A DNA stretch of 64,000 nt from Candidatus Ozemobacteraceae bacterium (GTDB taxonomy: Bacteria > Muiribacteriota > Ozemobacteria > Ozemobacterales > Ozemobacteraceae): contig DATCTT010000187.1 of NCBI GenBank assembly GCA_036567845.1, forward strand, positions 385 through 64,384. Direction: 5' to 3'. Made by a program: the position numbers and the translations under genes. Shown piece after piece: positions 11,881-51,398 of the stretch (position 1 is the stretch's first letter; each line of letters starts with the position of its first letter). The notes beneath the pieces were generated by a model that was not told the origin of the DNA, searched no databases, and was given only the letters and a program-made list of their open reading frames with translations.

Positions 11881-11898
11881 TTTTATAAAGGGGTATAT

Positions 11899-19930: not shown

Positions 19931-19993
19931 GATGAAGTTATCGGCATGAACCGCAGGGGAAGGAGAGAAGGCTGGTCGGCCGGCACGCGCGGG

Positions 19994-20215: not shown

Positions 20216-20282
20216 GCCGCGATGGTAGCACAGTCGGTGCCTTCCTTCAACAGCACGGCTGCATTCCACGCCTGTCCCTCTG

Positions 20283-20311
20283 TTGCGGAAATCTCCCTGA
20301 CAGGCTAGTAT
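20283..20311 (+). promoter_or_regulatory. Candidate promoter TTGCGG-17 nt-TAGTAT at the head of the glycan locus (near-leaderless)
   Basis: -10 ends 10 nt before ATG 20321, in the divergent region. Confidence 0.35.
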
Positions 20312-23576: not shown

Positions 23577-23720
23577 ATATGGATTGCCTTGGGACCTGTC
23601 AGAATCGCGGGAACCCCGTTTGACAAAGGCTGGAACGAAGACGTATAGTTTGTGCTGCCCTGAAACGCTGGAATTACTGATGGGACGGAGGCGGTTTTGC
23701 CTCTTCCAGGAGAAGACCTG

Positions 23721-26029: not shown

Positions 26030-27637
26030 ATGGAACCATTTGCCGTCGTCATCCCCGCTGTCAAGAAGAGCGTCGCCTTTGCGGACGATCTCATCAAAAA
26101 ACTTGATGGGATAACGCTCATTCAGCGCGCAATAGACAAGGCAAAGGCGATTGCTCCGGCGAATGCGATCCTTGTCGTTACCGATTCCCAGGAGATTTCC
26201 CTGATCTGTGAAAGGAATGCCGTGTCCTTCACGTATGACAGGGAAATGAGGCTTCAAAGTGAAGATTTGATCCAGGACCTGAAACCAGTCCTTCGCACAA
26301 TGGCCCGTAGGTTCCAGGATCTTATCGTCCTTTCCCCCTATACCCCGACGTTGCGGCCCGAAGTCATTCGTACCGGATACCGGCTGTTTCAGCAGATGGA
26401 GTATGACCTTCTGACAACCGTCAGAGAGGTTCATCACCGGTTGTATCTCGAGGGGAACAAACAGGCAGAGAGTTCCCAGGCGGTCCGAAACGATGGCAAG
26501 TATCTCGTGGAGGTGAACGGATTTCTCATCCTCCGCTCGAAAGTTGTTGGATCAATCCCCAGTCGGATCGGGACATACCCGGTCGATGACAGCATCGTCG
26601 AGATCCGGAATTATCAGGACTGGTGGGTATGTGAAAAACTCCTCCGCCGGAAGCGGATCGTGTTTCGTGTGATCGGGAACAACGACGTGGGAATGGGGCA
26701 CATTTTCCGCTCCCTGGCACTCGCACACGAAATTTCAAACCATGAGGTCATCTTCGTCTGCGATGAGGAGAGCCAGCTTGCGGTAAATGTCATCGCCGGT
26801 TCGGACTATCTGATCCTCACATTTTCCGGAAAAACGATCGAGCGCGACATCATTGCGTTGAGGCCGGAATTGGTGGTTAATGACATTCTGGATACCAATG
26901 CGGAGTATATCCGGGCGCTTCAGGCGAATGGAATCAAAGTGGTGAATTTCGAAGATCTTGGTACTGGGGCGGCCTGTGCGGACATTACCTTCAACGAATT
27001 ATACGACCGTCACCAAATTGCAGGAAGGAATATCCGGTGGGGACATCGGTATTATTTTTTGAGAGACGAATTTCTCGGTGCCCGGCCGATCGAATTCCGC
27101 GATCCTCCACAGAATGTCCTTATCACCTGTGGTGGAACCGATCCGAATGATCTGACGCGATTTGCCTTGGAGCAGGTGCTTCCCATATGCCGGGAGCATC
27201 ATTTGAAAATTTTTGTGGTGGTTGGCGAAGGGTATCGTCACAGAAAAGAATTGGAAAAACTGATTTTCTCGACGAAGCATGTCGAGATCGAATATTCGTA
27301 TGCCACGGGGGTCATGTCAAAATACATGGAGCGTGCTGATCTGGCGGTTTCCTCGAATGGCAGGACTGTATATGAGCTTGGTCATATGAACATTCCAGCT
27401 ATTGTCATTGCTCAAAATGACCGCGAAAAAACGCATGCATTTTCAACGTTGAAGAATGGGTTCGTCAATCTCGGCTTGTTCGATCCGGGGAAAACCGGCA
27501 AACAATTGAAAAATCATTTCCGCCGTCTCGTCAGCGATGCCGGATGGCGCAGGAAGTTGATGGAAAACGCGAAGAGATTTAATTTTCTCAAAAACAAGCG
27601 GAAGGTCGTTGCCTTGATCGAGGGACTTCTTGCATGA
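26030..27637 (+). CDS. Two-domain protein: degenerate cytidylyltransferase-like N-domain + PseG/SpsG-like UDP-sugar hydrolase (GT28-C-like) domain
   Basis: C-domain RVIGNNDVGMGHIFRSLALAHE parallels the PseG N-terminal G..G.GH..R motif. N-domain resembles CTP_transf_3 but lacks a clean GxSxR motif. Confidence 0.6.
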   Translation: MEPFAVVIPAVKKSVAFADDLIKKLDGITLIQRAIDKAKAIAPANAILVVTDSQEISLICERNAVSFTYDREMRLQSEDLIQDLKPVLRTMARRFQDLIVLSPYTPTLRPEVIRTGYRLFQQMEYDLLTTVREVHHRLYLEGNKQAESSQAVRNDGKYLVEVNGFLILRSKVVGSIPSRIGTYPVDDSIVEIRNYQDWWVCEKLLRRKRIVFRVIGNNDVGMGHIFRSLALAHEISNHEVIFVCDEESQLAVNVIAGSDYLILTFSGKTIERDIIALRPELVVNDILDTNAEYIRALQANGIKVVNFEDLGTGAACADITFNELYDRHQIAGRNIRWGHRYYFLRDEFLGARPIEFRDPPQNVLITCGGTDPNDLTRFALEQVLPICREHHLKIFVVVGEGYRHRKELEKLIFSTKHVEIEYSYATGVMSKYMERADLAVSSNGRTVYELGHMNIPAIVIAQNDREKTHAFSTLKNGFVNLGLFDPGKTGKQLKNHFRRLVSDAGWRRKLMENAKRFNFLKNKRKVVALIEGLLA

Positions 27638-28329
27638 GGAAAATTGTGGGAATCATTCAGGCGAGGATGGGTGCGACCCGCCTCCCCAACAAAATGATGC
27701 TCTGGCTTCACGGGCACCCCATCATCGAATGGGTTGTGCGACGAGCCGGGGCCGCGCAAAAGCTTGATGGGCTTCTCGTGGCTGTCCCGGAGGGAGACGG
27801 CGACGATGTTCTTGCATCATATCTTGTGCGGCAGGGAGTGTCGATCTTCCGTGGGAGTGAGAAGGACGTGGTTGACCGGTTCTATCAGGCTGCGCGCAGC
27901 GTTGGCGCGACTCATGTGGTCCGGATCTGTGCAGACAATCCGTTGATCTGCGGTACGGAAATCGACCATCTGATCGATTACTATTTTGCGAAGAACTATG
28001 ACTATGTCTATAACCATATTCCGAAGAACAACTCCTATCCGGATGGATATGGCGCGGAGATCATCTCCTTCGAAATTCTCGAAAGAATCTGGAAGGAATC
28101 GGTAAAGCCGGAACATCGGGAACACCTCTTGAACTATATATGGGATAATCCAAACGCCTTTTCCATTGCCACATTCGATCCACCGGATGTGAAGCTGGCC
28201 CGGCCCGACGTTCGGCTTGATATCGACCGCATGGCTGACTACGCCATGATGCTTGCCAAACCCCTGCGGATTGACATGGGGGCTAGGGAAATACTGGAAG
28301 TATGGAATGAAGGGGGGGGACACTGTTGA
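27634..28329 (+). CDS. Acylneuraminate/pseudaminate cytidylyltransferase family (PseF/SpsF-like, CTP_transf_3)
   Basis: IIQARMGATRLPNKMM matches the IPARxGSxRLPGK motif. ATGA overlap with the upstream gene. Confidence 0.75.
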   Translation: MRKIVGIIQARMGATRLPNKMMLWLHGHPIIEWVVRRAGAAQKLDGLLVAVPEGDGDDVLASYLVRQGVSIFRGSEKDVVDRFYQAARSVGATHVVRICADNPLICGTEIDHLIDYYFAKNYDYVYNHIPKNNSYPDGYGAEIISFEILERIWKESVKPEHREHLLNYIWDNPNAFSIATFDPPDVKLARPDVRLDIDRMADYAMMLAKPLRIDMGAREILEVWNEGGGHC

Positions 28330-29384
28330 AGAAAAAACTGGCAGATCTGATTGCCTGTGGCCCAAAGAACGAGATTCAACGGCCGTATATCATCGCCGAA
28401 GCCGGTGTGAATCACGAAGGGAGCATGGAGATTGCCTTTCGCCTCATCGCTGAAGCCGCCGATGGAGGGGCTGATGCCATAAAATTTCAGACCTACAAGG
28501 CCGAAACTCTTGCTTCGAGATTCTCACCCTCCTACTGGGATACCTCGAAAGAACCCACACGCAGCCAGTATGAGCTGTTCAAAAAGCATGACCGGTTTTG
28601 GAAGCATGAATGTGAACAACTGAAAGCCGAATGCGATCGCAGGGGAATCGAATTTTTCAGCACGCCGTTCGATATTGAGTCTGCCACATTTCTCAATGAG
28701 ATGATGTCGGTGTTCAAGATTTCCTCCTCAGATATTACGAACCGGCCATTCATCGAGTTCATGTGTGGTTTCAAAAAACCCGTACTTCTTTCTACGGGGG
28801 CATCGTTCCTGCATGAAGTCGAAGAAGCCGTCTCGTGGATCCGACCGTTCGGCGTCCCCTTGGGATTGATGCACTGCGTCCTGAATTATCCGACGGCAGA
28901 TGAGAATGCACATCTTGGAATGATCGGCCAATTGCGTGCGAAGTTCTCCGATTGTGTCATTGGGTATTCGGACCATACGCTGCCTGGCGATATGCACAAT
29001 CTCGAGATTGCCACCCTGCTTGGGGCAGAAATTCTTGAAAAACATTTCACCCACGATAAAACCCTTCCGGGGAATGACCATTATCATGCGATGGACCATG
29101 AAGATCTTCGGCTGTTTCGCCAGTCGTTCGATCGCACCCTGACGGTCATCGGATCCCGTGAGAAAAAGCCGCTGCCCTCCGAACAGCCTGCCAGGGAGAA
29201 CGCTCGCCGCAGCCTGGTTGCTGCCCGCGACATCCCGGAAGGGAAAACAATTGAATATGCCGACCTCACGTGGAAACGCCCGGCCCATGGGATCAGTCCG
29301 AAGGAGATCGCGGGAGTCGTCGGGAAGGTTGCTGCTTGTGCAATAGCCTACGATACGGTTCTCCAATGGTCGATGTTGGGCTGA
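28326..29384 (+). CDS. N-acetylneuraminate synthase family (NeuB/PseI/LegI-like) with C-terminal SAF domain, copy 1
   Basis: YIIAEAGVNHEGSMEIAFRLIAEAADGGADAIKFQTYKAETL is the NeuB TIM-barrel opening. C-terminal SAF (DIPEGKTIEYADLTWKRP). Confidence 0.85.
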   Translation: MKKKLADLIACGPKNEIQRPYIIAEAGVNHEGSMEIAFRLIAEAADGGADAIKFQTYKAETLASRFSPSYWDTSKEPTRSQYELFKKHDRFWKHECEQLKAECDRRGIEFFSTPFDIESATFLNEMMSVFKISSSDITNRPFIEFMCGFKKPVLLSTGASFLHEVEEAVSWIRPFGVPLGLMHCVLNYPTADENAHLGMIGQLRAKFSDCVIGYSDHTLPGDMHNLEIATLLGAEILEKHFTHDKTLPGNDHYHAMDHEDLRLFRQSFDRTLTVIGSREKKPLPSEQPARENARRSLVAARDIPEGKTIEYADLTWKRPAHGISPKEIAGVVGKVAACAIAYDTVLQWSMLG

Positions 29385-29395
29385 GAGCCCCGGCA

Positions 29396-30556
29396 ATGAA
29401 GAAGCTCTCCGAAGAGATCGCGCATTATCTTCAACGGCTGTTTCCCCTGAACCGGAGTCTGACCGGTGAGGGGAATCGTGAAACCCTGCGGATCATCAGC
29501 GAAATCGCTCCCGTCCGCCTTTTTGAGTATCCCTCCGGAAGTCGGATTTATGATTGGATGATCCCGGATGAATGGCATGTTCGTGAAGCCTGGATCAAAG
29601 ACTCCAGCGGCCGAATTCTCGTCGATTTCCTCAGGAACAACCTCCATCTGATGGGGTACAGTGTCCCGGTGCGGCGGACCATGTCGTTTGCAGAATTGCG
29701 GCCGCATCTGCATGTGCACCCGTTCCTGAAAGACGCCATTCCCTACCATACCAGCTACTTCAAGAAACAATGGGGTTTTTGCCTTTCAACCGAACAGCTG
29801 GAAAGCCTGTTCTCCCCTGAGGGGATCTATGAGGTCTGCGTCGACTCTGAGCTGAAGCCGGGAAGCCTTACTGTCGGTGAAATCCTGCTTCCCGGGACCT
29901 CGCAAAAGGAATATCTTGTCTCGACCTACATCTGCCATCCCTCGCTGGCGAATGACAATTTGAGCGGAATCCTCCTGACCGCTCTTCTGGCGCGAGAATG
30001 GGCCACCCGCAAGCGAAACTTTGGATACCGGTTCATCTTTGTCCCGGAAACGCTTGGCGCCCTCGCCTACTGCGCCAACAACGAAGCGGCTGTGAAAGAT
30101 CTCATGGGTGCTTTGGTTGTGACAGGAGTGGGCGGCCCAGGTTCTTTCAGCTACAAGCAGAGCTTTCAGAAAGAACACTTTTTGAATGGCATGGTTGAAG
30201 ATACGCTCAATGAATTGCACCGGGCATTTCTGACCTATCCCTTCGATATTCATGGCTCCGATGAGCGGCAGTATTCCTCGCCCGGATTTCGGATCAATAC
30301 CGTCACGATTTCGCGGGATCGGTACTACGAGTATCCGGAATACCACTCCTCCCTCGATAACCTGGAATTCGTCCGGCCCGAGTATCTCCTTTCCTGTTAC
30401 GAGGCCTATCTCCGGCTCCTCGAAAAAATGGATCAGAACCTCGTATTCATCCGAACCGAGCCTCACGGGGAACCGCGTCTCGGAGCGCGGGGATTGTATC
30501 CCGAGACGGGGGGGGGCAGCGGCCCGAACGGCATGGAAAGAGTGAGCTGGACCTGA
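29396..30556 (+). pseudogene. DUF4910 (aminopeptidase-like) protein truncated by a frameshift in a G9 tract; C-terminal winged-helix segment continues in +1 frame to 30690
   Basis: G9 run at 30507-30515. A G10 would read ...ETGGGQRPERHGKSELDLILWIAFLADGSMNLYEMARKLDVPLEEVYRIALKMEGAGVLRRI* (stop 30690), giving 431 aa, the expected full DUF4910 length. The present frame stops at 30556. Confidence 0.6.
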
Positions 30557-30883
30557 TCCTTTGGATTGCCTTCCTGGCGGACGGTTCCATGAATCTCTAC
30601 GAAATGGCTCGGAAGCTGGATGTGCCTCTCGAGGAGGTATACCGCATTGCCCTGAAGATGGAAGGAGCTGGCGTGTTGCGGCGGATTTAGCGTGGATACT
30701 GTGTGAGGCTGGTTGGAACCGGGGGAAAGCTTGACTAAACCCGGGGGTTCTTGTAGCTTGCTTCTTGGAAACGAGGCGGCAACGCCGGCCGGGAAAGCCC
30801 TGGCGCCGGATGGGCGGGAATACGTCGGAAAACATGCCGCCGGTGAGAAAACTGCGGAACACCCGGAATCCGAGGGAGATATC

Positions 30884-31303
30884 GTGCGCGATTATGCGTT
30901 TTCCGATCTGAAAACCGGGCATCAGGAATCTTTCTCCGTCACTCTTTCGGATGAGATGATGGAACAGTTTAAAAATATAACTGGTGATATTAATCCGTTG
31001 CATCTCGATGCGGAGTATGCCCGGAAGGCCGGTTTCCCAGATCGTGTTGTTTATGGGCTTTTGACCGCATCGTTCTATTCGACCCTCGTGGGGGTGTATC
31101 TGCCTGGAAAGTATGCCCTCTTCCTGGGTGCAAAAAAAATGAATTTCCATCGTCCGGTATTCGTTGGTGACCGGCTGACCGTCACCGGAACGATTGCAAA
31201 TCTGAACGAGGCATTCAAGGTCATCGAAATCAAGGCAACGATCGTGAATCAGCGTTCGGAGCTTGTCTCTGACGCAAGTTTGAATGCCAGTTCCCTGAAA
31301 TGA
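30884..31303 (+). CDS. MaoC-like (R)-specific enoyl/3-hydroxyacyl dehydratase, hot-dog fold
   Basis: FKNITGDINPLHLDAEYARKAGF matches the hot-dog SGD.NP.H.D motif. GTG start at 30884 with GAGGGAG RBS. Confidence 0.7.
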   Translation: MRDYAFSDLKTGHQESFSVTLSDEMMEQFKNITGDINPLHLDAEYARKAGFPDRVVYGLLTASFYSTLVGVYLPGKYALFLGAKKMNFHRPVFVGDRLTVTGTIANLNEAFKVIEIKATIVNQRSELVSDASLNASSLK

Positions 31304-32115
31304 GCCGTTCTGAAACCATGGAGCACATTGCACGAATTCTCGCTGAAAAAACCAGAGACCGATTTGCCACGATTCACATCGATGCTGCCGGTTTGATTCG
31401 GCTGGGCGAGACAAATGACGAGCGCCTGAACAATTTCGAGCGGATCCTGACCACGGCGGAGAGTCTGGGAGGAAACTTTGCTGTTCCCGTTTTTTCATAT
31501 TCTTACGGGAAGAATGAAGTCTTCAACATTCTTGAGACGCCCTCCACGGTTGGCCGGGTCACCGAATACCTGAGGAAACGTCGTCCACATCGGCGGACGG
31601 TCGATCCATTCTTTTCGTTCCTGCTTTACGGAAATGTGGGAATGGCACATTGCCTTGTCCGGGATTATGAATGTTTTGGGGACCAGTCGCTTTTTGCCGA
31701 GCTTCATCAGCTTGACGGGTATGTGTGCTGTATTGGGAATGTCTTTTACAACATTCCGACGGAAGTCCATTATTTTGAACGGAAGTTGGGCGTCGATTAC
31801 CGGTTCAACAAGGAGTTTTCGGGAACGCTCGTGGACGTGGATGGACATCCTCATCCGCAGAAAGCTGTGTATTTTTGCCGGAAAGATCCGAATAGCCTTG
31901 AGGCGGATTTCACGCGACTGGAACGGGATCTTCTCGCGAATTGCCTTTTTGAATATTGGCGCGCGGAAGAGGTCGAGTTCGAAATCCAGGCGATCTCGAT
32001 GCAGCGCCTGTTTGCATTCATTCAGACAAAGGTTGCTGGTAATCCCCACTATCTGTGTTCGCCAGTGGACGCTTACCTCGAAAACAAAAAAAGGCGGAAG
32101 CTGGGGATTATCTGA
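31300..32115 (+). CDS. AAC(3)-family (Antibiotic_NAT fold) N-acyltransferase-like protein
   Basis: ATIHIDAAGL...GNFAVPVFSYSY...VDPFFSFLLYG parallel AAC(3) motifs (VHSSL.. / GTLVMPT.T / DP.F). ATGA overlap with the MaoC gene. Confidence 0.5.
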   Translation: MSRSETMEHIARILAEKTRDRFATIHIDAAGLIRLGETNDERLNNFERILTTAESLGGNFAVPVFSYSYGKNEVFNILETPSTVGRVTEYLRKRRPHRRTVDPFFSFLLYGNVGMAHCLVRDYECFGDQSLFAELHQLDGYVCCIGNVFYNIPTEVHYFERKLGVDYRFNKEFSGTLVDVDGHPHPQKAVYFCRKDPNSLEADFTRLERDLLANCLFEYWRAEEVEFEIQAISMQRLFAFIQTKVAGNPHYLCSPVDAYLENKKRRKLGII

Positions 32116-32117
32116 GT

Positions 32118-33941
32118 ATGAATCCGACGCAAGTGGATCAGGTTTTTCAGTATCCGTTCCAGGGGCAGGAGTTGCTTGCAAAGCAGAATCGGTGGCGGCG
32201 TCTCCTTCTGGAACAGAGTGACTCCTTCGAACCGAAACGCATTGCCATTCTCGGAGGGTCCACCACGTTCAACATCAGGAATCTCCTCGAGCTGTTTCTG
32301 TTGCGGAAGGGGTTCAAACCTACCTTTTATGAATCTGGCTACAACAGATACTTCGAGGAAGCCGTTTTTGAAATGGAGGGCCTGAAGGCATTTCAGCCGG
32401 ACGTGGTGTATATCCATACGACATCCCACAACCTCCTGTATCCGCCCTTGCCGGATGATTCGGCCGAGTGTGTCGAAGAGAAGCTGAATCAGGAGCTTGG
32501 AAGATATCGTCGCATCTGGCAGTCGCTCCAGGATCATTTCCCGTGCGCCATCATCCAAAACAATTTCGAGCTTCCCCTGAATCGGGTTCTTGGAAATCTC
32601 GATTCATCAGCGGTCCAGGGGATGTCCAGATTCATTCTGAGGCTGAATCTGGCCATGGGGGATGCGGTGAGAAGCATGCCCCGCCTGTATATAAATGACA
32701 TCCATTATCTGGCGAGCCTGACGGGGTTGGAGCGCTGGCACGACAGTCGCCTCTGGTATTCCTTCAAGTATGCCCTCAGCTTCGATGCCATGCCCATCCT
32801 TGCGAACAATCTTGCCTCCATTGTCAGTGCCTTGTATGGGAAAACTCAGAAGGCCCTTGTGGTCGATCTCGACAACACCATGTGGGGAGGGGTGATTGGC
32901 GACGATGGACCGTCGGGAATCGAGATCGGGAAGGAAAATCCACGGGCTGAGGCGTTTTCCGACCTGCAGCTCTATGTGAAGAACCTTCACCGGCGTGGAA
33001 TCGTGCTCGCCGTGAGCTCCAAGAATGAAGAGATGATTGCACGAGAAGGGTTTGAGCGCCCGGAGAGTGTCTTGAAACTCACTGATTTCCAGTCCTTCAA
33101 GGCAAATTGGGAGCCCAAGCCCGACAATCTTGTCAAAATCGCTCAGGAGCTGAATCTGGGGCTCGACAGCCTGGTATTTCTCGACGACAACCCGGCGGAA
33201 CGAGAAATCGTTCGGGCCAGGCTGCCCATGGTGAAAGTCCCCCCTCTGGGGGATAGCGTGGAGGAATTCATTGGCCACCTTGACAAGGGCGGCTGGTTCG
33301 AGCCGGTCTTTCTCTCGGCGGACGATCTGGAACGGAACCGGTATTATCACGAAAATCGCAGCCGAGAGGAACTGAAGAACTCCACCTCGACGATTGGTGA
33401 CTTTCTCGCATCCTTGCAGATGACGGCCGAAATTTGCGCGTTTTCTCCCCCCAGCCTCCAGCGGATCACCCAACTCATCAACAAGACCAATCAGTTCAAT
33501 CTGACCACCCGTCGATGCAATCTCGCCGAGGTGGAATCAATGATGAATGGGAAGGAATATATCACCCTGTGTGGCAAGCTCTGCGATAAGTTTGGGGATA
33601 ATGGTTTAATCACGGTCCTCGCGGGGAAGATCACCGGGGATACGGTTGAAATCATCCTCTGGCTGATGAGCTGTCGTGTTCTTCAGCGAGGGGTCGAGGA
33701 TGCAATGATGGACAGGCTGGTGGAGGAGGCCAGGGCCAGGGGAATTCGGAACATCGTCGGGGTTTATCTCCCGACGGCAAAAAATGGCATGGTCAAAGAG
33801 CATTATCTCAAAATGGGATTCACCCGGATGGAAGAGACCGGAGACGAAATGGCAAAATGGATATTCAGGATTCCGGAGAGCTACAGTCCGAGGAACCGCT
33901 TTATCAAAATATCTGCAGTTTCATCGCAAAAAAAGGACTGA
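32118..33941 (+). CDS. FkbH-like protein (HAD-IIIC phosphatase domain + C-terminal GNAT-like domain)
   Basis: LVVDLDNTMWGGVIGDDG (HAD motif I DxDxT), LAVSSKNEE, FLDDNPAERE (motif III). C-terminal domain as in FkbH/OzmB glyceryl-ACP-forming enzymes. Confidence 0.75.
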   Translation: MNPTQVDQVFQYPFQGQELLAKQNRWRRLLLEQSDSFEPKRIAILGGSTTFNIRNLLELFLLRKGFKPTFYESGYNRYFEEAVFEMEGLKAFQPDVVYIHTTSHNLLYPPLPDDSAECVEEKLNQELGRYRRIWQSLQDHFPCAIIQNNFELPLNRVLGNLDSSAVQGMSRFILRLNLAMGDAVRSMPRLYINDIHYLASLTGLERWHDSRLWYSFKYALSFDAMPILANNLASIVSALYGKTQKALVVDLDNTMWGGVIGDDGPSGIEIGKENPRAEAFSDLQLYVKNLHRRGIVLAVSSKNEEMIAREGFERPESVLKLTDFQSFKANWEPKPDNLVKIAQELNLGLDSLVFLDDNPAEREIVRARLPMVKVPPLGDSVEEFIGHLDKGGWFEPVFLSADDLERNRYYHENRSREELKNSTSTIGDFLASLQMTAEICAFSPPSLQRITQLINKTNQFNLTTRRCNLAEVESMMNGKEYITLCGKLCDKFGDNGLITVLAGKITGDTVEIILWLMSCRVLQRGVEDAMMDRLVEEARARGIRNIVGVYLPTAKNGMVKEHYLKMGFTRMEETGDEMAKWIFRIPESYSPRNRFIKISAVSSQKKD

Positions 33942-33948
33942 TCATCGC

Positions 33949-34191
33949 ATGGATGACCAAATGATGCTGAATAAAATACAGGATATATTTCGTGATGTGT
34001 TCGACAAGTCCGACTTGGTCATATCCCGTGAAACGAACTCGGATCAGATCGAAGAGTGGGATTCCCTGAATCACATCAATCTCGTCGTTGCCATCGAGAA
34101 GCAGTTCAAGATCAAATTCACCTTGGCCGAGCTGCAGCCGTTGAAAAATGTCGGGGAAATGATGGATGTGATGCAGAAAAAGCTGTCTTGA
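33949..34191 (+). CDS. Acyl carrier protein
   Basis: ~80 aa with EEWDSLNHINLVVAIEKQFKI (DSL phosphopantetheine site). Confidence 0.7.
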   Translation: MDDQMMLNKIQDIFRDVFDKSDLVISRETNSDQIEEWDSLNHINLVVAIEKQFKIKFTLAELQPLKNVGEMMDVMQKKLS

Positions 34192-34224
34192 AGACAGGCA
34201 ATGGGGAACAGCTGGGAGTAATTT

Positions 34225-34986
34225 GTGGACCAGAAATCAGGGGATGCGGATGTCGTAAATTCCGATGCGCTGTTGGTGATAGGTGCTTCTTCGTCCGTTG
34301 GGAAGGAGTTGATTCGCCTCCTTGCACCTCGTGAATCGAAGATTTTTGCGCATTTTCATCATGACAGGGCGGAACTTGAACGGTTACAGGAGGAGTTCGG
34401 CGCCCGGCTCGTTCTCGTTCAGGCTGATCTCGCGGAAGAAGCATCCGTTGACGCTCTCGTGGAACGGGTCTCATCGGAAGCTCTTCCTCGGAAGATTGTG
34501 TTTCTGGCGGCTCCACCACTCTCTCTGACCAGATTCAAGGACCTTTCGTGGGGGGATTTTCAAAACCATATCGATATCCAGGTGAAAGCTGCCGTGAGGA
34601 TCCTGGGGTGTTTCCTCCCTGCAATGACGACTGCGCGATATGGGCGAGTCGTATTTATGCTGTCGAGTTACACCCTGGGAGTTCCACCGGGTGCGCTTGC
34701 TCATTATGTTCTAGGGAAGTATGCCGTTCTGGGACTCATGAAAGCGCTTGCCGCGGAATACGCGGGAAAGAATATCTGTGTAAATGCTGTTTCGCCATCG
34801 ATGATCACGACGGATTACCTTGCCAATATTCCCGAAAAAATCGTCGAGCTGACAGCGCAACAGCATCCGCGCAAGAAAAATGCTTTGCCAGCAGAAATCG
34901 CTCCGGTTATTGCTTTTTTGTTATCCGAAGGGGCGGGCTATCTCACGGGGGCCAATATTCCCGTGACCGGTGGCTCCCAGTTCTGA
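34225..34986 (+). CDS. SDR-family oxidoreductase (3-oxoacyl-ACP reductase-like)
   Basis: LVIGASSSVGKEL (TGxxxGxG-like), YxxxK (YVLGKYA), NAVSPSMITT. Confidence 0.8.
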   Translation: MDQKSGDADVVNSDALLVIGASSSVGKELIRLLAPRESKIFAHFHHDRAELERLQEEFGARLVLVQADLAEEASVDALVERVSSEALPRKIVFLAAPPLSLTRFKDLSWGDFQNHIDIQVKAAVRILGCFLPAMTTARYGRVVFMLSSYTLGVPPGALAHYVLGKYAVLGLMKALAAEYAGKNICVNAVSPSMITTDYLANIPEKIVELTAQQHPRKKNALPAEIAPVIAFLLSEGAGYLTGANIPVTGGSQF

Positions 34987-35143
34987 CATCCGCGGGCTGG
35001 AGAGTTGCTTTACATGGGACCCAATTCGGGGTATGCTTGCATGCCTCCGAGTGATTGGTGCGCCGATTTTGTGACGTGAAATTCCCGGATGCCGACAGAG
35101 GTGCTTCGGTAGTTGTGCATTGCTGAATATCGGGAGAATACAT

Positions 35144-36367
35144 ATGAGAACAAAAACAAACTCCGTTTCAAACCCTTATTATACATATGGAATGTTATAT
35201 AAATCAGAGAATTTCAAAAACTGGGAGGCGACCAAGGGGGAGAAGTTCAAAAATTACCGCCAGGCTTGGACGGAGCGGGTCAGAAATCAGGATTATGGGC
35301 AGTTCCCGCTGAATCTGAACACCGAGATCACGACGCGCTGCAATCTGAAATGCTCGTTTTGCACACATCTGTCTCTGAAGCCGCATCAGATCGGGGATAT
35401 AACGTTCGATCAGTTCAAACGGCTCATTGATGAGGGTGAACGGTTTGGGTTGCCGACCATCAACATCAATGGCTTGGGGGAGCCGCTTCTCTGCAAGGAG
35501 CTTCCTCGTTTCATCCGGTATGCCAAAGAGCACGGCGTGCTTGACGTCATGTTCCATACGAATGGAACGTTGATGACGGAGGAAATTGCTGAGGAACTGA
35601 TCGATGCCGGCCTGGACCGGATCGTTTTTTCGGTCGACTCCCCGGACAAGAAAACCTATGAGACGATGCGCATTCTGGATGTTCCAACGCCTGTCGGGAA
35701 AGAATCGGCACCTCCAAAAGGGTTCCCGTGGGAAAAGCTGGTGGCGAATGTCCTGAAGTTTGTCGAGGTTCGCAATCGTCGTGGGCTCAAGGCGCCCATC
35801 ATCCGGGCGACCATGGTAGCCACCGAGAAGACGGTGCATCAGGTGCCGGATCTGTTGAAACTGTGGAAGCCGCATGTTGACCACATCACCGTCCAGGATC
35901 TGACCTGGAGAACCAAAATTCTTGATCAGGGCTTCTGGACAAACAAGGAAAACTCCGCTTTGTCTGCAAATTTTGATGCGATCAGAGAAGAGGCGGTTAA
36001 GAGAAACATTCATTTTGTTTGTCCTTACCTGTTCCAGTCTGTTTATCAGTTTTATGGTGGAAATCTCATCCCTTGTGGCAATCCAAATGCACGATCGCAT
36101 ATGATAATGGGGAGATGGGACGAACAGAGCATCCATGAGATTTGGACGGGCAAGGCCTATTCAGAGTTGCGGGCGCTTCACACTTCTGGAAAATGGTATG
36201 AGCATCCGATCTGTAAGGACTGTGACGTTGCTCTGCTCGAACTTTTCAAGGATATGATCTCGAAAAAAATTGCCATTGACTGGCACGCTGGCGAAGTCGA
36301 TGACAGTCTTGCCATCATGGGAGAGCAGCTCGAATCCATTTACCTGGACGAAAAAGGGGCAAAGTGA
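35144..36367 (+). CDS. Radical SAM protein with C-terminal SPASM-type Cys-rich domain
   Basis: CNLKCSFC (Cx3Cx2C). C-terminal Cys cluster (CPY...PCGN...CKDCDVA). Confidence 0.75.
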   Translation: MRTKTNSVSNPYYTYGMLYKSENFKNWEATKGEKFKNYRQAWTERVRNQDYGQFPLNLNTEITTRCNLKCSFCTHLSLKPHQIGDITFDQFKRLIDEGERFGLPTININGLGEPLLCKELPRFIRYAKEHGVLDVMFHTNGTLMTEEIAEELIDAGLDRIVFSVDSPDKKTYETMRILDVPTPVGKESAPPKGFPWEKLVANVLKFVEVRNRRGLKAPIIRATMVATEKTVHQVPDLLKLWKPHVDHITVQDLTWRTKILDQGFWTNKENSALSANFDAIREEAVKRNIHFVCPYLFQSVYQFYGGNLIPCGNPNARSHMIMGRWDEQSIHEIWTGKAYSELRALHTSGKWYEHPICKDCDVALLELFKDMISKKIAIDWHAGEVDDSLAIMGEQLESIYLDEKGAK

Positions 36368-36416
36368 GACGAAATCAGGAGCAATATATGCGCAATATAA
36401 TGCGCAAGGGTTCAGC

Positions 36417-37910
36417 ATGCACCAGCCCCTGAGGGTATTGCTCGTCAATGTGCCTTCCCGCGTTGGGAAAGGCGGTTTCATGTTGCCACTCGGGCTCCTG
36501 TATGTCGCTGGGATCCTCCAGCGTTCAGGGGCCGAGGGGAAAATTTTGGATCTTTATCTGGCCGATTCAGAATCGGCGTTCTTTTCGGACTTGGATGGCG
36601 AAATGGAGCGATTTCGCCCCCAGGTCGTCGGTTTGGGGGGAATCGGTTCTTCGTATTCCTGGGCAAAGACTCTTGCTCTTCGGATACGGGAACGGTGGCC
36701 GCAGGTCCGCATCATCGCCGGTGGGGCTTTGTCCTCCGTTGGCGATCTTCTGCTGAAAAAAGCGGGTGTGGACTGCGTGTTTTACGGGGAGACGGAAAAT
36801 TCGCTTCCGAGATATCTTGAGGCGCTTCGGACGAATGGTGAGATCTGGCGTCTCCCGGGAATTGCTTTTCGGACCGAAGACGGACATGTCCGTTGGAACC
36901 CCCCCTCATCGCAACTGGAAAACCTCGATGAAATTCCGATTCCTCCCTATCACCTCGTTGATTTGCGCCGGTATTGTGTGTCGATCAGGGATTGGATTGA
37001 CATTTATCCATCATTGAATCATTCCTATCCTGGCTTGATCGAAAGGCTGAAAGGGCTGTCGGAATATTATATTCCCATCGTCGGTGGACGGGGTTGTACG
37101 CATTCGTGTTTTTTCTGTTACCGCCACATGAAGGGCGTGCGCAAAAACTCTCCAGCATATCTTGTGCGGCACATGAAGTTTTTGAAGGAAACTTATGGGA
37201 TTGGCGGATTTCAGATATGTGACGAGCTTTTTAACACGGATTCTGACTGGGTCTTGGATTTTTGTCGCCAGATCGATGAAGCACGGCTGAACATATTTTA
37301 TCTGATTGGCGGGGCCAGGGTGGATCGAATGGATGCGCACCTGTTGAAACGTCTTCGTGAAACGGGGTGCATTGAAATCAATTATGGCCAGGAAACGGGT
37401 TCCGATCTCTTGTTGCGTGAGATCAAAAAGGGGGTTGATGCGGCGCAGAACCTTGCCGTTTCCCGGATGACCATCGAAGCTGGAATCCATTGTCCTGTGC
37501 AGCTTGTCCTCGGGATGCCCAGTGAATCGCCGGCAACCATACGCGACACCCTTGCGTTTTTGCGGAAACTTAATGGTTCTTCCATTTCCTTTAATTTCCT
37601 CATTCCCTTCCCAAAGACACCTTCATGGGGATATCTGAAAAAAAGGGGAATACAAGTGGATGAGGAAGAATATCTCCAGGAGGTTGCCCGTGTTGGCGGC
37701 GGGCGTCTGCTTCTCAATCTTACCCGGTATCCAGATTGGATGGTCAGATTTTGGGGGCTTCAGATTTTGCATCTGGCTTCTCTTCTCGCATGCAAAGAAC
37801 AGGGAAGACCCTTGGGATATCTCTTCCGATTTCTCTGGTATCGCGTGAAGGAAATCCTGATCAGGACCCTTTCCCTGTCTCGAAGATGGTTGGGCGTTGG
37901 AGACGCTTGA
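36417..37910 (+). CDS. B12-binding-domain radical SAM protein (class B rSAM, putative C-methyltransferase)
   Basis: N-terminal Rossmann-like B12-binding domain (RVLLVNVP...GLLYVAG). GCTHSCFFC radical-SAM cluster motif. Confidence 0.75.
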   Translation: MHQPLRVLLVNVPSRVGKGGFMLPLGLLYVAGILQRSGAEGKILDLYLADSESAFFSDLDGEMERFRPQVVGLGGIGSSYSWAKTLALRIRERWPQVRIIAGGALSSVGDLLLKKAGVDCVFYGETENSLPRYLEALRTNGEIWRLPGIAFRTEDGHVRWNPPSSQLENLDEIPIPPYHLVDLRRYCVSIRDWIDIYPSLNHSYPGLIERLKGLSEYYIPIVGGRGCTHSCFFCYRHMKGVRKNSPAYLVRHMKFLKETYGIGGFQICDELFNTDSDWVLDFCRQIDEARLNIFYLIGGARVDRMDAHLLKRLRETGCIEINYGQETGSDLLLREIKKGVDAAQNLAVSRMTIEAGIHCPVQLVLGMPSESPATIRDTLAFLRKLNGSSISFNFLIPFPKTPSWGYLKKRGIQVDEEEYLQEVARVGGGRLLLNLTRYPDWMVRFWGLQILHLASLLACKEQGRPLGYLFRFLWYRVKEILIRTLSLSRRWLGVGDA

Positions 37911-37929: not shown

Positions 37930-39438
37930 ATGAATTTTGGACAGAGCATCAGTCGGAATATCAAGTTCGGCATAGGAAGCCGACTTGTTTCCAGTCTCAT
38001 CAATTTTTTTCTGTTTCCCTTCGTTCTCTTTCATGTTGGAAAAGAGACGTATGGGATGTATCTCCTGGTTATGACTGTTACGGGCTATATGGGGTTACTG
38101 GAATTTGGGGTCATGTCTGCGCTGACTAAGTATGTTGCAGAATACAGTTCCAGAAACGAGGGCGAGCGCGCGTGTGAGGTCGTCAATGCAACCCTGACCT
38201 TCTTTTTCTGCGTTGGAGTATTGATTTTCCTTGGGTTGACTGGTTTTTCGGTCGTGTTTTCACAATTTTTCCCCATTTCCCCGGAAAACCACGAAATTGT
38301 TCGGCAGCTGTTCCTGGTTGGTGGTGTGTCTGCCTTGTTCATTTGGCCGCTGAACACTTTTTCCGGAGCGGTGCAGGGGTTGAATCTTTGGACGGTTATC
38401 GCATGGGTGAACATAGGAACGAGTTTCGCCTATGGCGTTGGTGCCTATGCGCTATTGACGAATGGGTATGGAATCGTGGCGTTGTTTGGGTTTAATCAGA
38501 TTGTCACTTGCTTGGGGGCCGTGGTTTATTCCCTTTTCACACGAAAGCTTCTGAAGTTTTCACTTCAATTTCCTTATATGCATTGGCAAATATATTCTAA
38601 AATATTCAGTTTCAGCATGTTCATGTTTCTCAGCAGCGTGCTGAACATTTTCCTCTTTCAGATCCATAATCTTCTGATCGGATATTTTCTCACTCCTGCG
38701 AGTATTTCCCTATATGCGGTTGCCAACAATCTCCAGAGCTATTTGAGGATGATCAATGGAACGTTGGGCGGGCCTCCGTGGACGGTTGCGGCACAGCTGG
38801 AGGGAAAGCGGGACTTCGAGGGGCAACGGAAGCTTGTTTGCAAGGGAACCCGGCTGATGGGGGCCGTCTTCATTCCCATCGTTCTGATTCTCATCGTGTT
38901 TGCGGATTCCTTCATCCCTGCATGGGTAGGCGGGGGCTTTGAGGAAAGTATTGTGGCGACTCGCGTTATTCTTCTCTTCTGGCTTTTCAATGGAACGTTG
39001 GAAATTGCCGGAGGGATGCTTTCGGCAAAGGGGATGGTTCGGGAGAGCCTCAAAATTCAAGTTCTCATGGCAGCCGCAAACATTCTGATCTGCGTTTGCT
39101 GTATCAAAAGCCTCGGAATCTTGGCTGTCGCCCTGGGCCTGACGGTTTCCATGATCGTTGTTGGTTTTCCCCTTTCCCTCCATCTTTCTCTTACAAGCTT
39201 GAACATTGCGTGGGCTGACTTTTTGCGCCGTTCTGTTGCGCCAAACCTTTCGCATTATATATTGGCTGGCATTAGCGCTTGGGCGTTTTCCCGCCTTGCT
39301 GTCGGCCTTTCGCTGAAAGAAGTTGTTGCCCTCATGGGAGCCTCCTACGTTGGGAGCTTGGCACTTCTCTATCTCCTTGTGCTTTGCCCCGAGGAGCAAG
39401 CTGAAGTGAAAAGCCTGCTCCTGCCGGCAAAAGCGTGA
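37930..39438 (+). CDS. Oligosaccharide flippase Wzx (MOP superfamily polysaccharide biosynthesis protein)
   Basis: ~12-14 TM helices and polysaccharide-exporter topology. Lies within the glycan locus. Confidence 0.7.
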   Translation: MNFGQSISRNIKFGIGSRLVSSLINFFLFPFVLFHVGKETYGMYLLVMTVTGYMGLLEFGVMSALTKYVAEYSSRNEGERACEVVNATLTFFFCVGVLIFLGLTGFSVVFSQFFPISPENHEIVRQLFLVGGVSALFIWPLNTFSGAVQGLNLWTVIAWVNIGTSFAYGVGAYALLTNGYGIVALFGFNQIVTCLGAVVYSLFTRKLLKFSLQFPYMHWQIYSKIFSFSMFMFLSSVLNIFLFQIHNLLIGYFLTPASISLYAVANNLQSYLRMINGTLGGPPWTVAAQLEGKRDFEGQRKLVCKGTRLMGAVFIPIVLILIVFADSFIPAWVGGGFEESIVATRVILLFWLFNGTLEIAGGMLSAKGMVRESLKIQVLMAAANILICVCCIKSLGILAVALGLTVSMIVVGFPLSLHLSLTSLNIAWADFLRRSVAPNLSHYILAGISAWAFSRLAVGLSLKEVVALMGASYVGSLALLYLLVLCPEEQAEVKSLLLPAKA

Positions 39439-39540: not shown

Positions 39541-41382
39541 ATGCCGCAACGATGTGCAGGAGGGGGCTCTGAAAGAAATCCCGTGGAATTGGTTCTTACG
39601 GGATATCAGCCATTATGGCCTGCCGACGAGTCCAACGCCGTGTTTCTCGGTCCGTGGTGCTTTGCGGACAATTCTCGCCGGCCGTTTGGCCAACAGACAG
39701 AATTTCGACTTATTCCCCCCCCGTCTGGAAACAAATGTGACCTGGTTCGAGATGTTGAGAAAATTGATCACATAACGGACCGCGTCCTGCCCGTTCTGGC
39801 GGAACGCCTCAATGCGTGGTACGGAACGAGATTCAGTGAGCGATTTTGGAAAATTTCAACGATCGCATGGCTTTCGTTTTGGATCGGACTCCTTTATGAA
39901 CGATTTGCCCGACTGAGCAACGCTGCCGATGTATTGGGAAGTGGAGGGTATGTCGTCACGATTCCCAGGCATGCGCTGACCTCTCCCCCAGAAGATTACA
40001 ACCAGGCTGCAAACACCTCTCATCTTCATGAGTTTAACCTTGATGTCTTCGCGATGATCTGCCGCGTTCACGCCTTTCCGGGAATGGAACTCAGAGAGAG
40101 AGAACTTCCGGCCGATGGCGCCTGGCGGGAAAAAGTCGCAGGGCTGTCGGGAAGCTGCCAGCCGATCTCCCCGGGGATTGTACGCCAGGTGGAAGCGTTT
40201 CTCGACAGGCTTTGGAAGAATGTAATCCGACCCGAGGTGCATTGGGGGAAAGTCTATGGAGTCACTCTCGGGGATCGACTGTTCTTCGACTGGCGATTGT
40301 GGAGAAGGACTGGACGCCGCTGCCCGAGGTTGGAACCAATTGTGCCGCAAACCGGAGAAATGGATGCGTTCCGGCGAGAACCTCTCTCTTTCGGGGGTGA
40401 AACACCCTTTGAGAAAATCGTTGAAAAGCTCCTCCCGAAGATTGTTCCGGCTGCAGTGCTGAGGGAAATTCCCCCCCTGGAGCGGGAGGAACGGGTTCGG
40501 CTTTGGGTGGGGAATGATATTTGGCAACAGAGAGAGGCATTCAAGATCGCCAGGGTTGTCGAGGGGGGAGGGGCTTGGGTTTCTGTGCAGCATGGTGCCG
40601 GCTATGGCCAGGGAATGCCATTTCCGAATGGAAAAGTCGAATACGAGGCGAGTGGAAATTTCATCTCCTGGGGCTGGACGCATGAGCATTTCTATCCCTG
40701 CCGGGTGATTCCCCTGCCCTCCCCGATGTTGAGCAAACTTCCGGAGCGGAAACTTTCAGATTCCAGCATCCTGCTTGTAGGGATTGGGTATCCCGTGTAT
40801 CGATATCGGCCCATATACAGCCTCAAGCCGGAAGAAATTCTTCCGTATCTCAAAGACCGTGAAACCTTCATCCTGAATATCGATACCCATCTGAAGTTGC
40901 ACGTCAGATTCAAGCCCTATTTTCGGGATTATGGAGAGGATTCTGTCGGCGCTTTGCGAGGAGTGCTCGATTCAACCCAGATTCTCGACCCCCGAAGCTC
41001 GGTTGGCAGCTGCCTTGCCACGGCCCGGGTTGTTGTCGTCGATCATCTGGGGACAACTCTTTCGGAGTCAATGGCTGCAAATGTTCCGACGATTGCCTTT
41101 TGGCGACCGGAGCACTTTGCGGTTTGCGATGAGGCCAAATTTGCTTTTGAAGCACTCAGGGCTGTCGGAATTCTTCATGACTCGCCGGAGAGCGCAGCCG
41201 TGAAACTCAATCAGATCTTCAATGATCTGGAACGTTGGTGGGCTGATCCGGCCGTTCAGCGTGCCCGAAACCTTTTTTTGGACCATTCCGGGATGGCTGC
41301 TGCAGACTGGCGTTTTCGCTGGCTTACCAGAATCCGAGAACTACTGAACGAAGAGCCTCTTGCCCCCCAGGGGAACCCGTGA
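39541..41382 (+). CDS. Hypothetical 613-aa protein (candidate glycan/nonulosonic-acid transferase; family unassigned)
   Basis: Real ORF by codon usage and context. No motif I can assign with confidence. Confidence 0.35.
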   Translation: MPQRCAGGGSERNPVELVLTGYQPLWPADESNAVFLGPWCFADNSRRPFGQQTEFRLIPPPSGNKCDLVRDVEKIDHITDRVLPVLAERLNAWYGTRFSERFWKISTIAWLSFWIGLLYERFARLSNAADVLGSGGYVVTIPRHALTSPPEDYNQAANTSHLHEFNLDVFAMICRVHAFPGMELRERELPADGAWREKVAGLSGSCQPISPGIVRQVEAFLDRLWKNVIRPEVHWGKVYGVTLGDRLFFDWRLWRRTGRRCPRLEPIVPQTGEMDAFRREPLSFGGETPFEKIVEKLLPKIVPAAVLREIPPLEREERVRLWVGNDIWQQREAFKIARVVEGGGAWVSVQHGAGYGQGMPFPNGKVEYEASGNFISWGWTHEHFYPCRVIPLPSPMLSKLPERKLSDSSILLVGIGYPVYRYRPIYSLKPEEILPYLKDRETFILNIDTHLKLHVRFKPYFRDYGEDSVGALRGVLDSTQILDPRSSVGSCLATARVVVVDHLGTTLSESMAANVPTIAFWRPEHFAVCDEAKFAFEALRAVGILHDSPESAAVKLNQIFNDLERWWADPAVQRARNLFLDHSGMAAADWRFRWLTRIRELLNEEPLAPQGNP

Positions 41383-44488: not shown

Positions 44489-44717
44489 AACCAGCCGTCA
44501 GAAAAGATGAACAACACCGGTGGTGGGCGAGAAGGTCTCCAAACCGAGGAAGGACCCCACACAATATATTATTGTATTTTGTCGCGGCGGGACGTCAGGG
44601 CAGGCCAGTCTACCGCCTTTCTTGGGTTTTGACAAGGATTCTGGCCGTGCATGGGTTTGCTTTTCTCATGTTCTCGCTGGAATGCGGCGGGCCGCCGGGA
44701 TGGGCTGTCGGGATACC

Positions 44718-44745
44718 TTGCCAATTTCAGCATATCTGCTATACT
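44718..44745 (+). promoter_or_regulatory. Candidate promoter TTGCCA-16 nt-TATACT for the second methyltransferase/DegT/rfb block
   Basis: In the 365-bp divergent intergenic region. Confidence 0.35.
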
Positions 44746-44853
44746 TCCGCCCATCTCGGATGGTTTTGCTGGCGGGATTGATCGCTGGGAGGGAATCCGC
44801 TGGCATGTGAACGGCCTGAGTCGCCAAAAATGACATTGTGATCGAATGTCGGG

Positions 44854-46919: not shown

Positions 46920-46992
46920 TACAATGCGGCCACACTTTGCAAGGCTCATCAACAGCCAGTTTCAACAGAATTCCCACGTGGAATGAGGCTTC

Positions 46993-47766: not shown

Positions 47767-47767
47767 T

Positions 47768-51364: not shown

Positions 51365-51398
51365 GGGAACTCTCCTCTCGTCTCTGATATCCAAAGGG

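Follow-up and report, generated by a model that had tools for sequence, protein, structure and literature searches.

What is a set of enzymes for building acyl groups on a carrier protein doing in the middle of a nonulosonic acid locus? The question is raised by seven genes at positions 30884–37910 of the window, a 64,000-nucleotide stretch of contig DATCTT010000187.1 from a Candidatus Ozemobacteraceae bacterium, an uncultured anaerobe of a family that has been assigned to the candidate phylum Riflebacteria. Flagella, capsules and O-antigens bear nonulosonic acids, whose N-acyl groups determine antigenicity as well as recognition by phages or lectins. The original prediction for this stretch held that the seven genes assemble an unusual acyl group on an acyl carrier protein (ACP) and place it, in lieu of acetyl, on the 5- or 7-amino group of a pseudaminic acid (Pse)- or legionaminic acid (Leg)-type sugar. 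Our analysis indicates that they are probably the acyl-supply and tailoring half of a longer cassette which would make, activate and export a CMP-linked, unusually N-acylated nonulosonic-type sugar.

Seven genes in the middle of a longer cassette

All seven open reading frames (ORFs) are present on the + strand of the window. Each scored above a Pfam or NCBIfam cut-off in profile searches, with catalytic motifs intact, and the families are those that had been named for them.

30884..31303, + strand: MaoC-type hot-dog (R)-hydratase/dehydratase, 139 aa (PF01575, 76 bits; cut-off 27)
31300..32115, + strand: N-acyltransferase of AAC(3) fold (NAT), of a rare subfamily, candidate acyl-ACP:sugar-amine transferase (PF02522, 57.1 bits; cut-off 25)
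32118..33941, + strand: FkbH-like loader with FkbH_N, HAD-IIIC phosphatase and C-terminal transferase regions (TIGR01686, 290 bits; cut-off 146.65)
33949..34191, + strand: ACP, 80 aa (PF00550, 24.9 bits; cut-off 20.8), with a DSL phosphopantetheine site at residues 38–40
34225..34986, + strand: FabG-like SDR ketoreductase (adh_short_C2, 129 bits)
35144..36367, + strand: radical SAM enzyme with a four-cysteine Twitch/BtrN-like auxiliary-cluster domain, here called rSPASM (Radical_SAM, 69 bits; SPASM, 36 bits)
36417..37910, + strand: B12-binding-domain radical SAM enzyme (PF02310, 56.7 bits, cut-off 32.1; PF04055, 56.9 bits)

Successive genes from MaoC through the Wzx flippase are spaced by −4, 2, 7, 33, 157, 49 and 19 bp. 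The block is flanked by NeuB (28326–29384) upstream and Wzx (37930–39438) downstream; these positions had been described correctly, but a DUF4910 gene that also lies there had been overlooked, and it belongs to the same gene unit as the seven. The seven genes are in turn the middle part of a + strand cassette, some 17 genes long, that extends from 23.7 to 41.4 kb. It begins with a KdnB-like oxidase, a KdnA-like aminotransferase, a cytidylyltransferase/PseG-like fusion, a cytidylyltransferase, NeuB and DUF4910, continues through the seven genes, and ends with Wzx and a LIC12162-family transferase. The G+C content is 50–55% within the cassette and 60–66% in its flanks. A promoter and terminator scan gave a single strong promoter-like site and no convincing internal terminator.

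23620..23649, + strand: sigma-70-like promoter match, TTGACA-18-TATAGT, 11/12 consensus positions, just upstream of the KdnB-like gene; promoter types of the host may differ

Domain fusions tie the N-acyltransferase to ACP, MaoC and DUF4910

In the FkbH-like protein, FkbH_N (46 bits) and the HAD-IIIC phosphatase region (TIGR01681, 62.8 bits; cut-off 35.75) were both recognized, HAD motif I (DLDNT) and an SCR motif are present, and Cys519 of the latter, a candidate for the cysteine of the acyl-S-enzyme intermediate, is invariant in 22 homologues; the protein matches PDB 3slr (BF1531; E 4e-55). The ACP gene begins 7 bp downstream. The hydratase-2 motif of MaoC, GDINPLH, is intact at residues 33–39, as are the Gly-rich cofactor motif GASSSVG and the YxxxK catalytic pair (YVLGK) of the SDR. 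The SDR reached no NCBIfam equivalog cut-off that would point to a specific substrate.

The NAT protein had no match in a PDB sequence search and is therefore a distant member of the AAC(3) family. An AlphaFold model (pLDDT 82.6) nonetheless places it by fold: the top 50 PDB fold matches are all AAC(3), FrbF or YokD, with TM scores of 0.58–0.67. The subfamily is rare, as a word-indexed search recovered 12 relatives and a profile search recovered 186 representatives at E ≤ 1e-30 among 1.84 billion. Ten longer relatives from the profile search were read for fused domains. Among them, one joins ACP to NAT (PP-binding plus Antibiotic_NAT; P0291), two join MaoC to NAT (P0293, P0316), three join NAT to DUF4910 (P0261, P0333, P0387) and two join NAT to a SAM methyltransferase (P0326, P0342). 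The ACP-NAT, MaoC-NAT and NAT-DUF4910 fusions support the transfer of an acyl group from ACP to an amine. They are the strongest computational support for a putative AAC(3)-fold enzyme that draws its acyl donor from a carrier protein, with MaoC and DUF4910 as partners. Given P0291, the context argues for acyl-ACP, as opposed to acetyl-CoA, as the likely donor.

Gene neighborhoods point the same way for the supply end of the module. The 595-aa FkbH family is very large, with more than 8000 matches and at least 596 matching stretches in representative genomes, and this acyl-supply chemistry may thus be common. We counted neighbors in 80 FkbH-anchored genome loci of the broad family, taken from an FkbH profile scan. 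ACP accompanies FkbH in 73 of the 80, MaoC in 27 and SDR in 17, while NeuB was seen in 3/80 and NAT and DUF4910 in 1/80 each; the full cassette was not among these 80 loci. FkbH-ACP(-MaoC-SDR) is a general, portable acyl-supply module. Every neighborhood of the NAT subfamily that we examined, on the other side, is this cassette, with NeuB and cytidylyltransferase genes. These counts and the NAT fusions support the earlier proposal of a carrier-protein-dependent module for acyl building and N-transfer within a nonulosonate locus.

A proposed route to the N-acylated sugar

The FkbH-like protein would take a glycolysis-derived C3 unit, 1,3-bisphosphoglycerate, dephosphorylate it and load glyceryl onto the dedicated ACP, a step suggested by family membership and by the near-universal adjacency of FkbH and ACP. 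MaoC may then dehydrate glyceryl-ACP to (enol)pyruvoyl-ACP, and the FabG-like SDR may reduce this to lactyl-ACP. Our reasons for proposing these two steps are the recurrent FkbH-ACP-MaoC-SDR module and an analogy with FR901464 and lankacidin, in which discrete dehydratase-ketoreductase (DH-KR) proteins turn glyceryl-ACP into lactyl-ACP (PMC4765723). The AAC(3)-fold NAT, with the DUF4910 protein, is predicted to move the acyl group from ACP to a sugar amine, as the ACP-NAT, MaoC-NAT and NAT-DUF4910 fusions and the genetics of Campylobacter jejuni suggest. The adjacent PseG-like hydrolase, NeuB synthase and cytidylyltransferase would supply and activate the sugar, to which the KdnB/KdnA-like pair may add an extra amine through oxidation and transamination. 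Either the sugar or the acyl group may be tailored by the BtrN-like and the B12-domain radical SAM enzymes, and the LIC12162-family transferase and Wzx would use and export the product. A legionaminic core of native G+C content elsewhere in the window could feed the pathway.

The scheme shares with the FkbH polyketide pathways an FkbH loader, a dedicated ACP, and a dehydratase and ketoreductase that act on a tethered C3 unit. It departs from them in that the window has a stand-alone MaoC hot-dog protein and a FabG-like SDR instead of polyketide synthase (PKS) DH and KR domains, in the extra N-terminal FkbH_N domain of its FkbH, and in the predicted destination of the acyl group, a sugar amine and not a ketosynthase.

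Relatives in Campylobacter and Clostridium

The original prediction knew of no described pathway with this combination of genes, but precedents exist. In C. jejuni NCTC 11168, the DUF4910 gene Cj1295 is required for N5-(2,3-di-O-methylglyceroyl)-Pse (PMC3068675), and in the flagellin glycosylation locus it adjoins Cj1296/7, an N-acetyltransferase, with the FkbH-domain gene cj1302 nearby (PMC3068675, PMC7099621). In Clostridium acetobutylicum, CA_C2195-2199 lie beside spsE/spsF and encode DUF4910, an ACP, an aminosugar N-acetyltransferase and an FkbH-like protein of the acetyltransferase+HAD type (PMC4000134, 2014).

The window thus resembles C. jejuni in having DUF4910, N-acetyltransferase-type and FkbH-domain genes in a nonulosonate locus, a comparison of gene content and not of sequence, and in C. 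jejuni the N-acyl group of the nonulosonate product derives from glycerate. We take the Cj1295 locus to include an ACP as well. Differences are equally clear. The window cassette has MaoC, SDR, two radical SAM enzymes and the KdnB/KdnA-like pair, and it forms part of a Wzx-dependent polysaccharide locus in contrast to the flagellin (Maf) locus of C. jejuni. Nor does it have an adjacent O-methyltransferase that would point to O-methylation of a glyceroyl group: no methyltransferase was found inside 23.7–41.4 kb, and the nearest lies at 20321–21181, upstream of two glycosyltransferases. In the C. acetobutylicum neighborhood, CA_C2187-CA_C2199, the core genes are like those of the window, spsE being NeuB and spsF the nucleotidyltransferase; the published table assigns no function or product and lists no MaoC, SDR, radical SAM or KdnB/KdnA-like genes (PMC4000134).

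N7-glyceroyl Pse is made by Tannerella forsythia and Vibrio vulnificus, and the genes for N-glyceroyl-type substitutions were unidentified as of 2017 (PMC5378307). A literature search found no publication that links FkbH and O-antigen. The pathway is partly precedented and biochemically undescribed, and what sets it apart is MaoC/SDR, the two radical SAM enzymes and the KdnB/KdnA-like pair. The cassette and the fusions offer a concrete set of enzymes for N-glyceroyl-type chemistry (FkbH, ACP, MaoC, SDR, the AAC(3)-like transferase and DUF4910) and provide the long-orphan DUF4910 family with a working partner.

A poly-G tract in the DUF4910 gene

29396..30690, + strand: DUF4910/DUF2172/HTH_47 protein of the Cj1295/CA_C2195 family (PF16254, 260 bits), between NeuB and MaoC
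30508..30516, + strand: G9 homopolymer at the DUF4910 frameshift site, the longest homopolymer of the 64-kb window

The DUF4910 protein matches PDB 3k9t, the C. acetobutylicum CA_C2195 structure, with E 7e-96. Its gene is frameshifted in the window, where the frame stops at 30556 and the C-terminal winged helix-turn-helix region continues in another frame. Addition of one G gives a full-length protein of about 431 aa, while deletion of one G leads to the wrong frame. Over 21,824 bp, an independent second contig (L112; Logan SRR2059973_20255) differs from the window only in having G10, and its DUF4910 gene is in frame and encodes 441 aa. In the sister loci described below, the G tract is interrupted.

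A poly-G tract likewise shifts the reading frame of C. jejuni Cj1295, in which G8 is off and G9 is on (PMC3068675); here G9 would be off and G10 on. The G9/G10 tract may therefore act as an on/off switch of the modification, or the difference could be a homopolymer assembly error. If real, a poly-G switch in the Cj1295 gene family of an uncultured and unrelated lineage would point to regulation that is either conserved or convergent.

The cassette recurs, with three variable parts

The same cassette was found in five other distinct metagenome loci (L001/L002, L003/L004, L085, L113 and L114), some of which do not reach both of its ends. Since the genes recur together in these loci, the grouping of the seven is not due to chance. 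The shared order starts with a pair of genes for an iron alcohol dehydrogenase (Fe-ADH) and a DegT-family aminotransferase, followed by the cytidylyltransferase-PseG (CT-PseG) fusion or a small GT2-like protein; runs through CTP_transf_3, NeuB, DUF4910, MaoC, NAT, FkbH, ACP and rSAM/SPASM; and ends with LIC12162, the B12-radical SAM gene and Wzx. No ACP was detected in L085.

Identity to the window is 45–74% for the CTP_transf_3 cytidylyltransferase (CT231), NeuB, DUF4910, MaoC, ACP and rSPASM. Within that range the MaoC homologues, likewise 139 aa, stand at 45–60% and NeuB at 65–68%, and CT231 is kept in all cassette loci at 46–56%. The fusion protein has homologues of 45–52% identity at the same position in L003, L085 and L113, and L001 and L114 carry a 217-aa GT2-like protein there. 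Further down, Wzx is 45–46% identical in L001, L085 and L114, and a LIC12162-family member was found in L001, L003, L085 and L114.

NAT and FkbH are 57–61% identical to the window proteins in most sister loci and 34–36% identical where another subfamily stands in. FkbH is the first variable part: in cassette loci it falls into two subfamilies, at roughly 60% or 35% identity to the window protein. The more distant FkbH subfamily (30–36% identity) is found in L085, L113, L114, L090 and L097, where it measures 625–636 aa in L113 and L114, and in these five loci gene order near NAT and rSPASM is shuffled with the cassette otherwise kept. In L113 and L114 the rSPASM gene separates NAT from FkbH, and ACP is followed by an extra radical SAM gene, which takes the place of the SDR.

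That place is the second variable part. The SDR occurs in the window only, and four of the five sister loci (L001, L003, L113 and L114) instead carry a gene for a radical SAM protein of 537–548 aa. The two were never found together in the six cassette loci, and L085 has neither. They may be alternative processors of the ACP-bound intermediate.

The third is the head of the cassette. An Fe-ADH + DegT pair stands there in the window, L001/2, L003/4 and L114; of L085, only the DegT gene is visible, at the edge of the stretch covered. We considered KdnB/KdnA orthologues as a fixed part of the cassette and rejected this, as the sister pairs are of another type and only that of the window is KdnB/KdnA-type; the typing was made for L001 by scoring against solved structures and for L003 and L114 by blastp grouping.

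Which amine receives the acyl group?

The remaining genes of the cassette, listed here, bear on the identity of the acceptor.

23697..24800, + strand: KdnB-like iron alcohol dehydrogenase, candidate ulosonate hydroxyl oxidase (PF00465)
24839..25999, + strand: KdnA-like DegT-family aminotransferase (PF01041, 306 bits)
26030..27637, + strand: fusion of a cytidylyltransferase-like N-terminal domain with a PseG-like (GT28_C) hydrolase domain (TIGR03590 PseG, 129.8 bits)
27634..28329, + strand: CTP_transf_3 cytidylyltransferase CT231, candidate CMP-ulosonate synthetase, SpsF-like (PF02348, 84 bits)
28326..29384, + strand: NeuB-family synthase copy 1, with SAF domain (PF03102, 226 bits)
37930..39438, + strand: Wzx/MOP-family flippase (Polysacc_synt_3, Polysacc_synt, MatE)
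39541..41382, + strand: LIC12162-family transferase, candidate glycosyltransferase for the modified sugar (TIGR04331, 320 bits; cut-off 225)

The PseG match of the fusion protein covers residues 209–464 and is below the cut-off of 153.55, and KdsB/PseF-like matches cover residues 4–135. NeuB copy 1 is divergent, with 308 bits against TIGR03569 (cut-off 400) and 220 bits against TIGR03586 (cut-off 340).

The acyl group may replace acetyl on N5 or N7 of a Pse- or Leg-type 5,7-diamino sugar, as in C. jejuni, with the KdnB/KdnA-like pair unrelated to the acylation; we consider this a serious possibility, somewhat short of an even chance. It is the acceptor proposed originally, and both positions have precedents, N5 for the glyceroyl-type group of C. 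jejuni (PMC3068675) and N7 for the glyceroyl Pse of T. forsythia and V. vulnificus (PMC5378307). The cassette holds a PseG-like hydrolase domain and NeuB, and elsewhere in the window are LegB (TIGR04180, 518 bits; cut-off 475), NeuC/LegG and a second NeuB. In agreement with the earlier remark that no canonical PseH/LegH-type acetyltransferase is visible next to the aminotransferases, we found no hexapeptide or GNAT acetyltransferase among the ORFs scanned. Nothing in the sequence fixes the position, however, and an oxidase + aminotransferase pair heads most of the cassettes, which speaks for an extra amination as part of the pathway. The N-acylation module of the original prediction is thus supported, but the KdnB/KdnA-like pair, which it overlooked, opens the possibility of a C8 or C9 amine.

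An acyl group on that extra amine is a more tentative alternative. The acceptor would be C8 of a 9-deoxy nonulosonate, or C9/C8 of a sugar of the neuraminic acid (Neu), Kdn or 3-deoxy-D-manno-octulosonate (Kdo) type, and the product a tri-amino or omega-amino ulosonic acid. An N-acylated sugar of this kind, an 8-amino-3,5,7,8,9-pentadeoxynonulosonic acid, is present in the O-antigen of Flexibacter maritimus (PMC3210612). The KdnB-like and KdnA-like genes are side by side with a gap of 38 bp, and the promoter-like site is directly upstream of them. Among solved structures, the KdnB-like protein is by far closest to Shewanella KdnB, the Kdo 8-oxidase (5k8c; E 7e-94, 318 bits over 354 residues), the next distinct family reaching only 106 bits. 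The closest solved relative of its partner is Shewanella KdnA, the 8-amino-3,8-dideoxy-octulosonate transaminase (5k8b; E 5e-88, 299 bits; next, 183 bits). KdnB and KdnA oxidize a hydroxyl of an ulosonic acid and then transaminate it (Kdo to Kdo8N), which is the chemistry that this alternative needs, but the window pair adjoins a NeuB-family synthase and an acylation module, not KdsA/KdsB or lipopolysaccharide (LPS) core genes. To our knowledge, moreover, KdnB acts solely on the primary C8-OH of Kdo, and the sister loci use another Fe-ADH/DegT type. A literature search on KdnB together with KdnA yielded no pertinent publication.

Two radical SAM enzymes

In rSPASM, the CX3CX2C motif (C66, C70, C73) is invariant in 42 homologues. 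The seven-cysteine SPASM motif was not found; there are only four C-terminal cysteines (293, 311, 357 and 360), all invariant, which fits a Twitch-like single auxiliary cluster, as in BtrN of butirosin biosynthesis. BtrN is also the best match by both sequence and fold (55 bits, mostly in the radical SAM core), and the rSPASM cysteine spacing, C-x17-C-x45-C-x2-C, resembles what we take to be the spacing of its single auxiliary cluster. BtrN is a radical SAM dehydrogenase that prepares an aminocyclitol for DegT-type transamination. The B12-domain enzyme has its cluster motif CX3CX2C at C227, C231 and C234. No NCBIfam equivalog was reached at cut-off, the best being ApyD with 129 bits against 750, and among solved structures the enzyme is closest to AprD4 of apramycin biosynthesis, a diol dehydratase that does not methylate (42 bits, mostly in the radical SAM core). 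Similarities to BtrN and AprD4, which tailor aminoglycoside sugars, are low and are leads, not evidence of membership. Methylation by the B12-domain enzyme is possible but unsupported.

Do these enzymes act on the acyl group or on the sugar? The original prediction counted rSPASM among the tailoring enzymes of the acyl module, and it is conceivable, if doubtful, that both enzymes modify the ACP-bound acyl group, for example by C-methylation, and leave the sugar untouched. Both genes directly follow the ACP and SDR genes, L113 and L114 have rSPASM between NAT and FkbH and the extra radical SAM gene after ACP, and the mutual exclusion of SDR and the 537–548 aa radical SAM protein suggests that the latter acts on an acyl intermediate. 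The homologues of rSPASM tell a different story. Those of 49–58% identity occur alongside NeuB, DegT, dehydratases and a PseG-like protein in nonulosonate loci, and FkbH is absent from five of the eight long loci. More distant relatives of 340 aa adjoin CTP_transf_3 and NeuB in the Clostridium botulinum flagellar glycosylation island (L115), and another, of 335 aa and 36% identical to the C. botulinum protein, is encoded at 60778–61785 of the window. The substrates of the closest structural relatives, BtrN and AprD4, are amino sugars or aminocyclitols. Because its homologues are found with nonulosonate genes in the absence of FkbH and because it is BtrN-like, rSPASM is more likely to be a sugar-tailoring than an acyl-tailoring enzyme, and our confidence in any particular reaction is low. 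For the B12-domain enzyme, homologues of 44–49% identity adjoin Wzx or LIC12162 in L001, L085 and L114.

The rSPASM family thus recurs in nonulosonate loci, that of C. botulinum included, and our literature search, within the library covered, found no publication on radical SAM enzymes in nonulosonate biosynthesis or loci. In another nonulosonate locus without FkbH (L088), a WbqC-like protein (11405–12145) is encoded directly after the rSPASM homologue.

Weighing the proposed route

It is very improbable that the module makes an O-linked substituent, a lipid anchor or a small polyketide-like metabolite and no sugar N-acylation takes place, for although FkbH is best known from polyketide pathways and FkbH-ACP(-MaoC-SDR) occurs in many loci without NeuB, NAT or DUF4910, so that the module serves more than one acceptor, family scans found no ketosynthase, acyltransferase or thioesterase in the cassette, the transferase has an amine-acylating AAC(3) fold and is fused to ACP in relatives, and the NAT subfamily was seen only with NeuB and cytidylyltransferase genes in the neighborhoods examined.

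Several observations weigh against acyl supply to a nonulosonic-type sugar as we have drawn it. The cassette does not contain the upstream sugar steps, namely the dehydratase, the first aminotransferase and the first N-acylation. Its MaoC dehydratase shares no homology with the PKS DH domains responsible for pyruvoyl-ACP. The SDR is absent from all five sister loci, so that lactyl cannot be the product of the whole family, and the lactyl prediction applies to the window only. That the sister Fe-ADH/DegT pairs are not KdnB/KdnA-type weakens the specific claim of amination at C8 or C9. The proposed partner of NAT, DUF4910, is out of frame in the window, and a structural study of this family saw no recognizable peptidase active site (PMC4000134). 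Finally, the organism is an uncultured metagenome-assembled genome, and its sequence fixes neither the acceptor nitrogen nor the final acyl structure.

The most far-reaching combination of these possibilities is a speculative one, to which we give a rather low probability: an undescribed nonulosonic acid with an extra amine at C8 or C9 from the KdnB/KdnA-like pair, a carrier-protein-built C3 acyl group on that amine or on another one, derived from lactyl or pyruvoyl and possibly modified by radical SAM chemistry, and a skeleton tailored by the BtrN-like enzyme, all phase-variable through the G9/G10 tract. If true, nonulosonate biosynthesis would gain its first radical SAM chemistry and its first terminal amination to be assigned genetically.

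Other genes of the window

A legionaminic-type core on the minus strand (50276–53590) comprises NeuB copy 2 (TIGR03569, 497 bits, above cut-off), a NeuC/LegG-type hydrolysing 2-epimerase and LegB. Its G+C content of 0.64–0.66, like that of the flanks and in contrast to 0.50–0.55 in the cassette, makes the core look native and the cassette acquired.

A second glycan module of low G+C content occupies 56707–61785 on the minus strand, with a HAD hydrolase, an epimerase/dehydratase, a D-2-hydroxyacid dehydrogenase, a FabG-like SDR, a CTP_transf_3 cytidylyltransferase and the 335-aa radical SAM/SPASM protein mentioned above. A separate CDP-hexose pathway is encoded at 45795–48862 by a DegT aminotransferase, glucose-1-phosphate cytidylyltransferase (375 bits) and CDP-glucose 4,6-dehydratase (472 bits). 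Between it and the cassette, at 41412–45627 on the minus strand, are genes for a 438-aa DegT-like protein matched by its family model over the N-terminal half only, a 587-aa TIGR04326 (LIC13510-type) surface carbohydrate protein below cut-off, and a 352-aa ORF with no family match; all of them converge on the cassette.

On the other side, an ORF at 19565–20308 (247 aa) was rejected as a gene, as its translation is charged and of low complexity and it overlaps a WecG/TagA-like gene on the opposite strand; it is probably spurious. The latter gene, at 18137–19930 on the minus strand, encodes a 597-aa WecG/TagA/TarA-like glycosyltransferase with a long N-terminal extension, and an SLH-domain protein is encoded at 14840–16840. 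The occurrence of these two genes just upstream of the glycan locus hints at an SLH-anchored surface layer and a ManNAc-containing linkage unit.

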